A stretch of 64,000 nucleotides of DNA from an uncultured Candidatus Saccharibacteria bacterium. GTDB lineage: Bacteria > Patescibacteriota > Minisyncoccia > Phycocordibacterales > Phycocordibacteraceae. The translations under genes and the position numbers were made by a program. Within the stretch, counting starts at the first letter, position 1. Each line of letters starts with the position of its first letter. The notes below the pieces were generated by a model. The model ran no database searches and had not been told where the DNA came from. It worked only from the letters and a program-made list of their open reading frames with translations. Below are positions 4,243 to 56,252 of this stretch, one piece after another. The stretch is from assembly GCA_964638585.1 (NCBI GenBank), contig CAZXAN010000001.1:23454-87453 (forward strand), given 5' to 3'.

Positions 4243-4279
4243 GGCCGCATTGGTAATCCAATGCGGCCTGCTTCTTTTA
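4243..4279 (+). terminator. Rho-independent terminator
   Basis: An 11-bp stem (ggccgcattgg / ccaatgcggcc) with loop taat is followed by tgcttctttt. Confidence 0.6.
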
Positions 4280-4312: not shown

Positions 4313-4666
4313 ATGCGCGGGAGACAATTAAGACAGGGATTACTGATAGGGTTTTTGTTGCTCGTCGCAGGCTGGCTGATCTCGCTTATCTGGGGGCTCT
4401 CTGGCAAGGTACAAATAGCTGTCCAAGAGGCTCATAATGCAGAGAGGCAATATAAGGCGCTTGAGGAGCGCAAAGCGGTTCTGCAGGCGAATATTGCCGC
4501 GCTCGCGACTGAGCGAGGGCAGGATGCCGCCATTCGCACCGCTTTCGGGGTCGCGCGCCCCGGAGAAGAGGTTATCGTAGTTGTGCCACCAGAGCCTTCC
4601 ACTACGACACAGTCTCTTTCTTGGTGGCAGAAGATATTGAGTTGGTTCCCAGCCAAAAGCCCATAG
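4313..4666 (+). CDS. ftsB: Septum formation initiator (FtsB/DivIC-like)
   Basis: 117 aa with an N-terminal TM, a coiled-coil segment (QEAHNAERQYKALEERKAVLQANIAAL) and a short Pro/Thr-rich tail. This is the typical FtsB/DivIC architecture. Confidence 0.5.
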   Translation: MRGRQLRQGLLIGFLLLVAGWLISLIWGLSGKVQIAVQEAHNAERQYKALEERKAVLQANIAALATERGQDAAIRTAFGVARPGEEVIVVVPPEPSTTTQSLSWWQKILSWFPAKSP

Positions 4667-4718
4667 GGCATTTAGGCGGGCCCGCCCCAATGGCGCAACG
4701 CCTTTGGGCTGGGTTAAT

Positions 4719-4789
4719 GCGGAATTGGTTTAGTGGTAGAACAGATGCTTCCCAAGCATCGGGCGGGAGTTCGATTCTCCCATTCCGCA
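4719..4789 (+). tRNA. tRNA-Gly(CCC)
   Basis: Cloverleaf read by hand: acceptor GCGGAAT/ATTCCGC, D-arm GTTTAGTGGTAGAAC, anticodon stem GATGC/GCATC with loop TTCCCAA, T-arm GGGAGTTCGATTCTCCC. CCA is not encoded. Confidence 0.85.
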
Positions 4790-4937
4790 CACGGATAGAT
4801 AATGTGCCAGCCACGCAAGTTTTAACGCCAATACGTAAAATAGACTGTCTATGCAGGGTATTTCGTGTACTCAATAACGTGCCTACCAAGAAATTCCGTT
4901 CAGTTTATCCACAGACACAACGAGAATCGAACTTTCT

Positions 4938-17222: not shown

Positions 17223-17828
17223 ATGCTCGTAGATCTCTCAGTCGAACTCAACGAAAAAACACCAATCTATCCGGGGGATCCCGAGACCAGGATTAATGCG
17301 GCGGGCGTTCTCGAAAATGACGGGTATCAGGACCATTATGTCTGTGTAGGTACCCATGTCGGTACACACATGGACGCACCGTCTCATATGGTAGCGGGAG
17401 GAAAGAATCTAGACGACTTTTCGCTCGCCCAATTTTCTGGTAATGGAGTCTACATAAAAACAGGAAGAAATTTTGATTTAAATGAGATTAGTAAAATTCC
17501 AATCAGTGCTGGCGATATTGTTCTGTTCCATACTGGTATGAGCGACGTGTATCACGAGAAGTCATATTATGACGACTACCCAGCGATTCCAGAAGAGGTC
17601 GCGAATTACCTCGTAGAGAGGAATGTAAAAATCGTCGGGGTTGATATGTGTAGTGTTGACCACCCGCCTTTCCCGGTTCATAAAATTCTGCTTAGTAAAA
17701 ATATTCTCATTATTGAAAATCTTACCAACCTAAGTGCTTTAGCAGAGAGGTCATTCAAGATTTACGCCTTTCCAATAAAACTTCAAATCGATGGGGCACC
17801 AGTGAGGGTGGTTGCTGAAACTGAATAA
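17223..17828 (+). CDS. Cyclase-family protein (kynurenine formamidase-like)
   Basis: GTHVGTHMDAPSHM is the metal-binding His cluster of the putative-cyclase family. Start placed at the internal Met MLVDLSVELN. Confidence 0.75.
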   Translation: MLVDLSVELNEKTPIYPGDPETRINAAGVLENDGYQDHYVCVGTHVGTHMDAPSHMVAGGKNLDDFSLAQFSGNGVYIKTGRNFDLNEISKIPISAGDIVLFHTGMSDVYHEKSYYDDYPAIPEEVANYLVERNVKIVGVDMCSVDHPPFPVHKILLSKNILIIENLTNLSALAERSFKIYAFPIKLQIDGAPVRVVAETE

Positions 17829-28274: not shown

Positions 28275-29501
28275 TTACGAAGTGAGTGATCGATTCCCGT
28301 CTGCTTTAAATTCTGTAGAGAACTCGCCTCTGAGTGCTCGGTAGTAGCCGGCCAGCGCAATCATGATGGCATTATCGGTAGTCAAACTAGGAGCAGGAAG
28401 CAGGAGGCGGCAAGCAGGGAATGAAGACGCCATTTCACGAGTAAAGACTCGGCGTATGTGAGTGTTCGCTGAGACCCCGCCGCCAATAACAAGCGTTTGC
28501 GCGCCAGTCTCTTCAAGCGCCTGCGCCGTCTTCTTCCACAGCACATCTGCAACCGCGTTTTCAAATTCGTGCGCTAGATGCTGTTTTTCTTCATCACTCA
28601 AATCTGGTTTATCTTTCAATAAATACAACACTGCTGTTTTCAGCCCCGCAAACGAGAAGTCGCACGTGCCCGAATCTATCATCGGCCTCGGCAATGTGAA
28701 GGGTTTCGTAAATCCTTCATCTAATGAAGGATTTACGAAACCCTTCATGAGAAGTGATTCGGACAGTTTAGAAAGTTCGGGGCCGCCAGGGTAGGGGAGG
28801 CCGAGCATGCGCGCGACCTTGTCATAGGCTTCGCCGACTGCATCGTCGCGCGTCTGACCTATGAGCTCATATTTCAACCATTCTTTCATTAGCACTAGTT
28901 CTGTGTGGCCACCAGAAATGAGAAGCGCAAGCACGGGCAATTTTATATCTTTGATTTTGAGCTCGTCGTCGCTGCCCGCCGAAGGCGGGGCGACATGATT
29001 TCGGCTTGCTAATGCCGAAATCACATGTCCTTCCATATGATTCACCGCCACCAGAGGCTTGTCCCAGACGAGCGCAAGAGCTTTCGCGAAGTTGATGCCC
29101 ACCCATAGCGCAGGTTCTAGACCTGGACCTGCTGTTACGGCTATCGCGTCTATTTCGGGCGGCTCGCATTCAGAAACGAATTCAAAAAAGACTTCTACGA
29201 GGCCGGGCTCACGCGCCAAAATTTCTGAAATTTTGGCGCGTGATTCTTCTGGTATCGCCTGAGCATCTTCATGCAGAAGTTCTGCCTCTTCGAGCGCTGC
29301 TTCCAGAATTGGTACAAGATTCTTCGCGTGCTCGCGCTTCGCGAGAGCAGGGAAGACCCCGCCGTATTCTTTATGAACTTCTATCTGCGAAATAAGTGCA
29401 TTCCCGAGCACAGAGAATGTTGCACTGGACTGGTCTCCACTGCATTCAAGAATCGCAATCGCCGTTTCATCACAACTTGTCTCAATGGCTAGGATTTTCA
29501 T
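28275..29501 (-). CDS. tsaD: tRNA N6-adenosine threonylcarbamoyltransferase
   Basis: MKILAIETSCDETAIAIL.. and a Kae1/TsaD fold throughout, plus the HMEGH metal site. The track ORF extends a further 57 codons upstream; start placed at the canonical MKIL. Confidence 0.9.
   Translation of the reverse strand: MKILAIETSCDETAIAILECSGDQSSATFSVLGNALISQIEVHKEYGGVFPALAKREHAKNLVPILEAALEEAELLHEDAQAIPEESRAKISEILAREPGLVEVFFEFVSECEPPEIDAIAVTAGPGLEPALWVGINFAKALALVWDKPLVAVNHMEGHVISALASRNHVAPPSAGSDDELKIKDIKLPVLALLISGGHTELVLMKEWLKYELIGQTRDDAVGEAYDKVARMLGLPYPGGPELSKLSESLLMKGFVNPSLDEGFTKPFTLPRPMIDSGTCDFSFAGLKTAVLYLLKDKPDLSDEEKQHLAHEFENAVADVLWKKTAQALEETGAQTLVIGGGVSANTHIRRVFTREMASSFPACRLLLPAPSLTTDNAIMIALAGYYRALRGEFSTEFKADGNRSLTS
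28697..28747. repeat. Perfect inverted repeat inside tsaD CDS (24-bp arms tgaagggtttcgtaaatccttcat, 3-nt spacer cta)
   Basis: Arms 28697-28720 and 28724-28747 are exact reverse complements, 51 bp and in frame. The repeat encodes about 17 extra residues (..MKGFVNPSLDEGFTKPF..) in a loop that is short in canonical TsaD. Confidence 0.85.
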
Positions 29502-43752: not shown

Positions 43753-43849
43753 GCAGGCATTGTACGCGTATGTTTGTAGAGCGCAAGCCCAGCACCAAAT
43801 TTTTTAGAAAAAAGTTGGTGCTGGATGAATTTTTTGCTATGATAAGCGT

Positions 43850-44849: not shown

Positions 44850-45663
44850 GTGAGGGACGTCTAACGTCCCTCACTCGAAGGACCCGGTGCTGTGTAGTGC
44901 AGAGTCGTCAGGTATATTGCGGCCGAGAATCACGTCTCGGGCGTACTCGCGGTAATCATCTGGACTGTAAAGCGATGTAAGGAACTTCTTGTCGACAATT
45001 GGCCGATTGAAAGTTCCAACATAATCACCTAGGCTCGAATACGGATATGCACTCGCCCAGGCATAGGCTTCGTTAAAGTTACTCCGCGCCCAATTGTAGC
45101 CCTTAGGGTGAACATCGAATGCGTTTTTCACTTGGATGTACGCCGATACGTATCGGAAATAATTGTCATCGTCCACAGTTCGCGCACAATATGAACCTTG
45201 GAAGAGGGATCCTTTTTCACAATAGCGTTCGTTAAATTTCTTTGCCATCCCGGTGCCTAGACGATGCATAAAGCGTACGACACCACCTTCCTTGATTTCC
45301 TGGAGCAGAAGGTGAAAGTGATTCTCGACGAGTCCAAAAGCGACTAGTCCAACATGTGAATCACGTTCTGGCCAATGAGGTGGCCGCTCGAAGGTTCGGT
45401 GAACGTGAGCGTCATATAAATCGCGATGCCAATTTGGAGAAGTGAAGCTGTCGTTGAAGTGAGTCAGCATCAGCAAGAATCTGAATCGATCTGCCTCATC
45501 ACGAACGATAGGTAATCCTCGCGTTCCTCGTTGAACGACGTGAACGTACGACCCAATGCTGAACGGCTCCTTCCGCATACACCAATCATACACGACCTGA
45601 GGGACGTTAGACGTCCCTCAAATGTCCTTGTGTGCATAAGTGAGGGACGCTAAGCGTCCCTCA
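44850..45663. mobile_element. REP-RAYT unit: IS200-like tyrosine transposase flanked by three REP palindromes
   Basis: GAGGGACG-N5-CGTCCCTC at 44850-44874 overlaps the RAYT stop. GAGGGACG-N5-CGTCCCTC at 45598-45620 lies 5 nt upstream of the start. GAGGGACGC-N3-GCGTCCCTC sits at 45641-45663. Confidence 0.7.
44871..45593 (-). CDS. REP-associated tyrosine transposase (RAYT; IS200/Y1-transposase-like)
   Basis: YVHVVQRGTRG..FLLMLTH.. and the HUH motif ENHFHLLLQE, then FMHRLGTGMAKKFNERYCEKGSLFQGSYCAR (catalytic Tyr region) and WARSNFN..SSL. Collinear with PF01797-type RAYTs. Confidence 0.75.
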   Translation of the reverse strand: MYDWCMRKEPFSIGSYVHVVQRGTRGLPIVRDEADRFRFLLMLTHFNDSFTSPNWHRDLYDAHVHRTFERPPHWPERDSHVGLVAFGLVENHFHLLLQEIKEGGVVRFMHRLGTGMAKKFNERYCEKGSLFQGSYCARTVDDDNYFRYVSAYIQVKNAFDVHPKGYNWARSNFNEAYAWASAYPYSSLGDYVGTFNRPIVDKKFLTSLYSPDDYREYARDVILGRNIPDDSALHSTGSFE

Positions 45664-47816: not shown

Positions 47817-48521
47817 GTGTCGCAGGGGATAACATTTTGTGCTACAATATACGCAATGGTTATCACGCATCACGGGGGTCAATGTATCAAGGTTACCTTC
47901 GGCGATTTGACGCTCGTCTTTGATCCTATCTCTAAAAGTGGCACTCTGCCCGCAGTGCGATTCGGCGCCGATATCGCCCTAGTCTCGCGCGACCATCCCG
48001 ATATGAATGGCGTTGACGAAGTGACTTACGGCGACAAAAAGCCTTTTGTTGTGAACGGCCCCGGCGAGTACGAGAGAGGAGGCGTAGTGATACAAGGATT
48101 CCTCTCACACAGTGCGTACAACTTGGCGGCGAAACACCCAAGCAACTTGGGTGTTTCGCCGCCAAGTTTCGTGAATACTATATATAGTGTGCAACTTGAG
48201 GATATGACTCTAGTGCATCTCGGTGCATTGTCTGACACTGAACTGTCACAAGAGGCGCGCGAGAGCATTGACGAGATAGATGTATTGTTTGTGCCGATTG
48301 GTGGTGAAGGTGTTCTATCTGCTTCAAAGGCGCACGAACTCGCGGTGTCGCTAGAGCCAAAGATAATAGTACCTATACATTGGCAAGGAGTGGGTGCGCC
48401 GAAATCTCTTGAAGCATTTCTTAAAGAGGCTGGTAATGGGAATGAAAAAGTTGATAAGCTCACACTTAAGAAAAAGGATTTGACGACTCTTGAAGGGAGT
48501 ATAATGGTTATAACTCAATAA
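47817..48521 (+). CDS. MBL-fold metallo-hydrolase (UPF0173-like)
   Basis: MVITHHGGQCIKVTFGDLTLVFDP.. and later DVLFVPIGG, consistent with Lactamase_B_3. The start may be the internal Met at 47856. Confidence 0.55.
   Translation: MSQGITFCATIYAMVITHHGGQCIKVTFGDLTLVFDPISKSGTLPAVRFGADIALVSRDHPDMNGVDEVTYGDKKPFVVNGPGEYERGGVVIQGFLSHSAYNLAAKHPSNLGVSPPSFVNTIYSVQLEDMTLVHLGALSDTELSQEARESIDEIDVLFVPIGGEGVLSASKAHELAVSLEPKIIVPIHWQGVGAPKSLEAFLKEAGNGNEKVDKLTLKKKDLTTLEGSIMVITQ
48121..48167. repeat. Perfect inverted repeat inside the MBL-hydrolase CDS (22-bp arms acttggcggcgaaacacccaag, 3-nt spacer caa)
   Basis: Arms 48121-48142 and 48146-48167 are exact reverse complements. The repeat encodes NLAAKHPSNLGVSPPS in frame. 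Confidence 0.85.
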
Positions 48522-56176: not shown

Positions 56177-56252
56177 ATCCAGCACCTAGTTTTGTTGCAA
56201 AACTAGGTGCTGGATAAAAAAAGGCCACCGCAAGCGGTGGCCTTTGAGTTTG
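56177..56252. terminator. Bidirectional terminator region: an 18-bp perfect palindrome with 3-nt loop (56177-56215), then a GC hairpin ggccaccgc-aa-gcggtggcc plus T-tract
   Basis: atccagcacctagttttg / caaaactaggtgctggat are exact reverse complements. The second hairpin at 56223-56242 is followed by tttgagtttg on the plus strand and has a T-run on the minus strand. The region sits between the convergent pilin-like operon and the 56261 gene. Confidence 0.6.

Follow-up and report, generated by a model that had tools for sequence, protein, structure and literature searches.

A perfect palindrome of 51 nt lies in frame inside tsaD, an essential tRNA-modification gene, in a 64-kb stretch of DNA from an uncultured Paceibacteria bacterium (64,000 nucleotides of contig CAZXAN010000001.1; this whole stretch is the window, and coordinates refer to it unless a locus is named). 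We consider it probable that this element, at 28697-28747, is a doublet of the kind formed by repetitive extragenic palindromic (REP) sequences, i.e. REP doublets forming hairpins (REPINs), and that it belongs to a REP family associated with a transposase resembling the REP-associated tyrosine transposases (RAYTs), here residing in coding DNA. A single window holds both this REPIN-like doublet and a RAYT-like gene that is flanked by the cognate hairpins, and the literature that we searched gave no description of RAYT/REPIN elements, or of coding palindromes, in Patescibacteria. Loci and contigs fetched for comparison are given L-numbers, of which L162 and L152 are contig ERZ27253369 k141_142843, which is syntenic with the window and represents a sister genome, and L163 and L164 belong to the same genome as the window and reach beyond its ends.

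A repeat search of the window recovered the palindrome as a preliminary description had reported it, with two 24-nt arms (28697-28720 and 28724-28747) that are 100% complementary around a 3-nt loop (24/3/24). When the window was shuffled 30 times with dinucleotides preserved, the longest perfect stem of a shuffle measured 9-12 bp, against perfect stems of 24, 23, 18 and 17 bp in the unshuffled sequence, and as single-stranded DNA the palindrome folds with -26.8 kcal/mol (z = -12). Because each arm is itself a small hairpin, and the inner loops of the two are reverse-complementary (CGT at 28697-28719 and ACG at 28725-28747), we read the element, which as a whole has no strand, as an inverted doublet of a REP-like hairpin monomer. 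The first monomer (28697-28719), TGAAGGGTTTCGTAAATCCTTCA in plus-strand reading, is a quasi-hairpin of 9 stem positions, including one G.T, with a 3-nt loop; the second (28725-28747), TGAAGGATTTACGAAACCCTTCA, is inverted relative to it. As in REPINs, two inverted REP monomers are thereby joined (23 nt, a 5-nt spacer and 23 nt), with 24/24 positions paired. A scan of the whole window against Rfam 15 at the gathering threshold returned tRNAs only, and the tsaD region, scanned at an E-value threshold, gave only sub-threshold matches to miRNA precursors, as any long hairpin would give. An exact 20-mer of the palindrome arm had no match in viral contigs.

The host coding sequence (28275-29501, minus strand) is intact, encodes 408 aa and matches Pfam PF00814. 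Read in frame on the minus strand, the palindrome corresponds to TsaD residues 252-269, MKGFVNPSLDEGFTKPFT. Of the three reading phases only one, as read from the sequence, crosses the doublet without meeting the TGA of the REP, and this is the phase that tsaD uses. The preliminary description had put the addition at about 17 residues in a short TsaD loop. The element is indeed predicted to be translated as about 17 loop residues, but the net gain is 12-13 residues, because the alignment with solved TsaD structures (8IEY, and 4WQ5 from E. coli) opens a 13-residue gap exactly at the palindrome, and short-loop close relatives have 12 residues fewer at this site. That both strands encode similar peptides, as also remarked there, is true and a trivial consequence of the symmetry. 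In the AlphaFold model residues 253-283 are coil, with a predicted local distance difference test (pLDDT) score below 50. The closest TsaD relatives are all from Patescibacteria/Paceibacteria, at identities of 79% or less.

The loop concerned varies in length and is a hot spot for palindromes. Between the invariant motifs PYPGGP and LPRPM, relatives have either a short loop or a perfect palindrome of their own, the sequences being quite different from one another (20/0/20 in L002, 15/1/15 in L007, 15/3/15 in L014 and 20/4/20 in L057). A homologous insert is found at this site in five further genomes, as 23/2/23 in L066, 20 bp with one G.T in L068, 25 bp with one G.T in L069, 21 bp in L070 and 23/5/23 in L162. 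Many close relatives are without the insert or have an unrelated one. It is not specific to one genome, since at least six, including that of the window, share it. Nowhere did a non-palindromic insert of equal length run through the clade: relatives have palindromic inserts or short loops. A neighbor-joining tree of TsaD, examined for monophyly of the insert types, was star-like and unresolved in the close clade, and hence uninformative; a metagenome scan with the TsaD alignment gave mostly distant TsaD genes among the matches listed, with L072 and L073 proving useful. Library fold-back artefacts can yield perfect palindromes, so that a chimeric fold-back read might have entered the consensus during assembly or amplification. 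The element is, however, in frame in an intact essential gene, and six or more assemblies made independently (ENA MEGAHIT, SPAdes, JGI, Logan) have it at one and the same site, with compensatory differences specific to each lineage. Since assemblies of separate origin, by project and by assembler, agree on the element and its site, we exclude an artefact, the probability of which we regard as negligible.

The paired arm positions show 0-1 mismatch inside each of the six genomes, as compared with about 8/23 monomer differences (~35%) between genomes, and therefore the two arms evolve in concert, with the hairpin-preserving compensatory changes that characterize REPINs. The element is also 94-96% identical between the window and L066, being the most conserved 17-codon stretch of a gene that is 72% identical overall and 43% identical at third codon positions. 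At the level of sequence, this identity points to either nucleotide-level constraint or re-seeding from other copies.

The RAYT-like gene (44871-45578, minus strand) lies 16 kb from the tsaD palindrome and is present once in the window. It encodes a predicted Y1/HUH transposase of 235 aa beginning MRKEPF; the open reading frame (ORF) was called as 44871-45593, the true start being at 45578. The product matches Pfam PF01797 with 38 bits (cutoff 23; E 2e-9). Its HUH motif, NHFHLL, contains H92/H94, which are invariant in an alignment of 20 homologs, as are Y148/Y152 in the segment YVSAYIQVKN; the Y1/HUH fold with HUH motif and catalytic tyrosine, as found in RAYTs, is thus present. A structural model (pLDDT 81) has as its best fold match in the PDB 4ER8_A (TnpA_REP; E 2.5e-4), the REP-associated tyrosine transposase of E. 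coli bound to a REP hairpin, followed by the TnpA proteins of IS608, IS200 and ISDra2. More than 700 homologs occur in Parcubacteria/Paceibacteria, some of them named RayT by JGI, and in the window, L152 and L154-L160, i.e. in every locus fetched, the gene stands between an S1-domain gene and pth.

Hairpins of the form TGAGGGACGT-NNN-ACGTCCCTCA flank this gene. One, TGAGGGACGTCTAACGTCCCTCA with loop CTA, lies at the 3' end (44851-44873), where its TCA provides the stop codon of the gene, and an extragenic REP doublet lies just upstream (45598-45663), consisting of REPs at 45598-45620 (loop TAG) and 45641-45663 with a 20-nt spacer. Loops of the 5' REP (TAG) and the 3' REP (CTA) are reverse-complementary around the gene. 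The exact flank REP occurs three times in the window, where 0.02 occurrences are expected, and this REP also borders the gene in L152, L154 and L157, giving the inverted REP flanks typical of RAYT genes. A homolog of 65% identity (L158, 9870-10790) carries a different inverted REP, CTGTGGA-N9-TCCACAG, again with reverse-complementary upstream and downstream loops, which suggests that REP and enzyme change jointly. REPINs are known for compensatory changes and for their placement beside RAYT genes (PMC3116915, PMC5581495), and the arrangement of this locus, as far as sequence can tell, has what these two reports describe as the hallmarks of RAYTs, making it RAYT-like.

What ties the tsaD arms to these flanks is a 23-nt frame, TGARGG-N11-CCYTCA, of which the 64 kb have exactly five copies where chance would give 0.01: two are the tsaD arms and three are the transposase flanks. 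The window arms (TGAAGG...CCTTCA) have the length and the outer stem of the flank REP, with one compensated transition. In the sister genome the tsaD insert at the same site reads TGAGGGAAGTTAAACATCCCTCA-ACAGA-TGAGGGATGTTTAACTTCCCTCA, and one of its arms is identical at 22/23 positions to an intergenic REP about 20 kb away (L152, 9958) and at 21/25 to the REP flanking the RAYT-like gene.

Beyond the five REP monomers in the window, a REP doublet lies about 2.9 kb past its right end in the same genome (L163, 12873-12918), within dus, the gene of a tRNA-dihydrouridine synthase. This doublet, TGATGGACTTCGTAAGTCCATCA...GGACTTACGAAGTCC, is read as DGLRKS...GLTKS, in a frame that differs from that of the tsaD copy, and because the two copies are read in different frames the homology is at the level of DNA and not of protein. 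About 22 non-redundant hairpins with the REP core GGAC-N2-N3-N2-GTCC were counted over 1.7 Mb of related loci, where about 1.6 would be expected. Two genes upstream of tsaD lies the gene of a PF10672 methyltransferase, in which one site is empty in the window and holds a singlet in L072, doublets in L004, L013, L068, L069, L073 and L162, and palindromes of other families in L002, L003, L010, L023 and L028. A loop of ValS, empty in the window, holds the hairpin in L162, L013 and L019; in L013, and again in L162, ValS and the methyltransferase have one 25-nt hairpin in common, with its loop inverted between the two genes. The sites taken inside coding sequences are variable loops of housekeeping genes. 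The suggestion that the element behaves as an in-frame palindromic insertion, like those of Rickettsia, and not as ordinary coding divergence is supported by this dispersed family, by the sister REPs and by the copies in other genes. Residence inside an intact reading frame, with relatives in the methyltransferase, ValS and dus genes, is at the same time the main departure of the tsaD element from known REPINs, which are extragenic.

The hairpin families distinguished in these loci are TGAGGG-N11-CCCTCA, ATGTNGGACGT..., CTTGGCGGT-GAA-... and CAAGGT-NNN-ACCTTG. As a separate observation, the REP-like families all have GT-NNN-AC at the top of the stem. Two of the families account for other palindromes inside coding sequences of the window. 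In the gene of a metallo-beta-lactamase (MBL)-fold hydrolase, a 23/3/23 palindrome (48120-48168), in frame in a loop, is a doublet of a degenerate CTTGGCGGT-GAA-ACCGCCAAG, 18/21 identical per monomer; L016 and L022 have the same hairpin in TsaD, and L158 has a doublet of it in a TrxB-like gene (17672-17710). Its likeness to these 'type A' TsaD hairpins, possibly fortuitous at first sight, was accepted after an exact 18-mer proved common to L158 and L016/L022. In lepA, a 26/0/26 palindrome at 92% (1518-1569), also in frame in a loop, is built on CAAGGT-NNN-ACCTTG, of which there are 22 copies in 1.6 Mb, both intergenic and intragenic, against 0.1 expected. The host loops of MBL and lepA are 8-10 residues shorter in the nearest relatives, and the sister genome has at the same lepA site a different palindrome, 26/1/26 with GTGAGGGA (L162, 19658-19710). 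The three palindromes of 24/3/24-like architecture (tsaD, MBL and lepA) represent three different sequence families, and a single repeat family for all palindromes of the window was rejected, their arms being mutually unrelated. Where the preliminary description counted two more examples in the window, others do exist, the count falling short of the three further palindromes within coding sequences, i.e. these two and a second one in tsaD (29209-29243).

One alternative is an origin of the tsaD palindrome by local template switching only, in which a replication fold-back made an inverted copy of adjacent native tsaD sequence and quasi-palindrome correction has since kept the arms perfect, with no mobile element or transposase involved. 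Such a mechanism is documented in other systems as a process that creates and homogenizes hairpins (PMC8794818; coding inverted repeats of yeast, PMC8604942), and it would suit arms that are perfect within genomes and divergent between them. Signatures of it are seen elsewhere in the material: tsaD-site palindromes are nested or overlapping, e.g. in L057 versus L028, loops are reverse-complementary between lineages (TTC in L014, GAA in L016), the outer arm of the lepA palindrome is an inverted copy of the conserved PPP codons, into which the arm runs, and lepA of L070 also has an inverted copy of CCGCCGCC. Local switching fails, however, to account for the 23-nt frame common to the arms and the transposase-flanking hairpins, for a sister insert 22/23 identical to intergenic REPs about 20 kb off, for the same hairpin in unrelated genes and frames, and for the near-identity of the window and L066 elements in the face of saturated synonymous divergence. 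A template-switch product would have one native arm and no copies elsewhere; both tsaD arms fit the dispersed REP frame. As a sole cause the mechanism is largely refuted by sequence families that cross genes and reach intergenic DNA, and we hold it to be improbable; the hairpins in other genes, in intergenic DNA and beside the transposase leave it a role in maintenance. Template switching probably contributes to maintenance and doublet formation rather than to origin, being a likely mechanism for arm identity and for the conversion of singlets to doublets, and at lepA, where the outer arm copies the PPP codons, it may have acted secondarily.

How general coding hairpins are was gauged by counting, in a sample biased to tsaD neighborhoods, the perfect stems of 12 bp or more that lie within long ORFs. 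They number about 113 per Mb of ORF in the close clade, 69 in more distant CPR (Candidate Phyla Radiation) loci and 18 in the most distant loci, with none found in the 50 kb around tsaD of E. coli and a chance expectation of about 0.4. Among in-ORF hairpins with at least 14 pairs, 53/70 are perfect, and the mismatches on the sense strand comprise 3 G.T versus 10 A.C; the missing G.U excess on the sense strand argues against wobble-tolerant selection at the RNA level, and these same figures fit template switching. Loop lengths also differ by location in the close-clade loci: in-ORF hairpins have 57 loops of 1 nt and 59 of 3 nt, compared with 25-39 for lengths of 0, 2 and 4 nt, and intergenic hairpins prefer loops of 4 nt. 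Arm complementarity could be upheld by selection for a hairpin that the enzyme recognizes or by mechanical homogenization, and both may act.

The second palindrome in tsaD (29209-29243), a perfect 17/1/17, encodes the peptide SRAKISEILARE, which is part of an insertion of about 39 aa specific to the clade. About 20 relatives have kept this palindrome, and in them 79.8% of cells are paired as compared with 70.9% in shuffles (0/500) and double-change cells number 44 versus 18 in shuffles, and this covariation forces coupled amino-acid changes (RA..AR, RS..ER, RD..SR). The peptide is modeled as a confident helix. The palindrome has no likeness to any REP family, and its relation to the REP-like palindromes is uncertain. 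With both tsaD palindromes conserved through compensatory changes, the first of them folding very stably, and an RNase III gene annotated in the genomic neighborhood (L164), one could propose host-selected cis-acting hairpins that regulate tsaD by way of mRNA stability, RNase III processing or translational pausing, the likeness to REPs being secondary. We judge this quite unlikely: many close relatives have no such hairpin at the tsaD site, or an unrelated one, the same elements recur in several unrelated genes and in intergenic DNA, the mismatches lack wobble tolerance on the sense strand, and no Rfam family passed its threshold.

Several points weigh against reading the tsaD palindrome as a REPIN-like doublet linked to the RAYT-like gene. 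Window arms and flanking REPs are identical at only 14/25 bases, so that in the window itself the link is made by the shared frame and by orthology with the sister element. The transposase scores 17.1 bits (E 0.004) against the RAYT equivalog NCBIfam NF047646, whose cutoff is 80, and PDB sequence searches with the protein and with its 20-sequence profile matched no chain; the name RAYT-like is used here because the gene, for all its arrangement and fold, falls below the curated equivalog cutoff. A second tsaD palindrome with no REP relative means that coding palindromes in these genomes need not share one origin, and there are template-switch signatures at lepA and in the L014 and L016 loops. 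Neither transposition nor an excision intermediate nor polymorphism of insertions within a population was observed, and the copy numbers of hairpins and transposase refer to the window and sampled related loci.

On the REPIN-like reading, which we prefer, an ancestor of the at least six sampled Paceibacteria lineages would have gained the doublet where tsaD encodes the loop. The RAYT-like enzyme would have brought it to this place, acting on single-stranded hairpins as IS200/IS605 and RAYT enzymes do; mobilization by this enzyme is inferred. The doublet could survive by virtue of a length divisible by three (48 or 51 nt), a phase that avoids TGA and a loop tolerant of extra residues, its translation product being the loop residues now seen in TsaD. 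Complementarity of the arms would then have been maintained by selection for the enzyme-recognized hairpin or by template switching within the palindrome. If the link holds, REPIN-like elements can live in the coding DNA of extremely compact genomes and offer a concrete source of lineage-specific loop insertions in CPR proteins, and the enzyme with its 23-nt hairpins makes the spread and the perfection of protein-coding palindromes tractable to test. It would also be a warning to annotators and to alignment-based phylogenomics, in that variable loops of CPR markers may be repeat DNA and not homologous residues.

More tentatively, and with a fair measure of doubt, we can imagine that a domesticated RAYT-like enzyme spreads several families of 15-25-nt hairpins in Paceibacteria, where intergenic DNA is scarce and copies would persist for the most part as in-frame inserts in the surface loops of essential proteins, so that the same few loops (TsaD, ValS, LepA, methyltransferase, Dus and MBL hydrolase) are repeatedly hit, overwritten and converted from singlet to doublet. 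If so, these elements would be a standing generator of lineage-specific insertions in CPR proteins, exaptation would have turned certain old inserts into parts of the protein fold (a possible case being the conserved RAKISEILAR helix of the second tsaD palindrome), and the enzyme would be the first candidate for mobilizing protein-coding palindromes like those of Rickettsia.

Other features of the window and its surroundings stand apart from these elements. Terminator-like hairpins lie between convergent or adjacent genes at 56177-56215, 56220-56245 and 43789-43824, and two of them share CCAGCACC...TTTT and may form another small repeat family. An imperfect palindrome with 36-nt arms (4648-4713) and an 11/4 hairpin (4243-4268) occupy an ORF-poor stretch just upstream of tRNA-Gly (4719-4790), with no Rfam match. 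At about 53.6-56.15 kb, several small genes in a row carry PF18895 T4SS_pilin domains, as annotated in the identical stretch of L163. About 7-9 kb before the window start, upstream of murJ-lepA, the same genome has a gene for a 569-aa reverse transcriptase (L164, 1303-3012; PF00078 RVT_1), which could be of the group II intron, retron or diversity-generating retroelement type.

Among known systems, the Rickettsia palindromic elements (RPEs), reportedly described by Ogata et al. in Science in 2000, are, as far as we know, the only well-known palindromic repeats that lie in frame. RPEs are about 100-150 bp long and form sequence families specific to Rickettsia; we know of no transposase tied to them, nor of any enzyme that mobilizes them. 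Like RPEs, the tsaD element is a palindromic repeat in frame in a housekeeping gene of a reduced genome, and would be translated as an extra surface segment with function retained. Unlike them, it measures 51 nt, is REP-like, has a Patescibacteria host and has a candidate enzyme adjoining cognate hairpins; membership in an RPE family is set aside by this length and host and not by comparison of consensus sequences.

The closest parallel is that of REPs or REPINs with RAYTs in E. coli and Pseudomonas (PMC3116915, PMC5581495, PMC3479197, PMC3733652). In both, inverted doublets of short hairpins form one long hairpin, inverted hairpins flank a Y1/HUH transposase gene of constant syntenic position, and transposase and REP change jointly between lineages while compensatory changes keep the hairpin. 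The differences are that the elements described here lie in frame inside coding genes and, judging from the reading frames, are translated, whereas REPs are by definition extragenic; that the doublet is compact (48-51 nt with a 2-5-nt spacer, compared with the roughly 70 nt that separate REPs in Pseudomonas fluorescens); that the enzyme, at 17 bits, stays far below the 80 bits required for the curated RAYT equivalog; and that the host is a Patescibacteria genome of about 1 Mb in which several hairpin families coexist.

Coding palindromes of Nematomorpha mitochondria (PMC6649704) are likewise perfect inverted repeats in functional genes, with both arms translated and with protein function and strict secondary structure preserved jointly. 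Those palindromes reach 284 bp, belong to an organelle genome, where they code for conserved parts of proteins, and come without a repeat family or transposase, whereas the palindromes of the window are short, sit in variable loops and are members of dispersed families. Template-switch hairpins (PMC8794818, PMC8604942) resemble the tsaD element in their perfect arms, compensatory-looking paired changes and spacer inversion, but template switching, which copies local sequence, gives no reason to expect one and the same hairpin in unrelated genes, between genes and beside a transposase gene. The IS200/IS605 elements (TnpA Y1; PDB 2A6O, 2F4F and 2XO6), finally, share with the RAYT-like locus the fold of the enzyme, hairpins at both ends of the gene and, presumably, single-strand 'peel and paste' chemistry. 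An IS200/IS605 element, however, is multi-copy, moves as a unit and has two unlike ends, whereas the RAYT-like gene stands at the same syntenic position in every relative sampled and carries the same REP, inverted, on both flanks.

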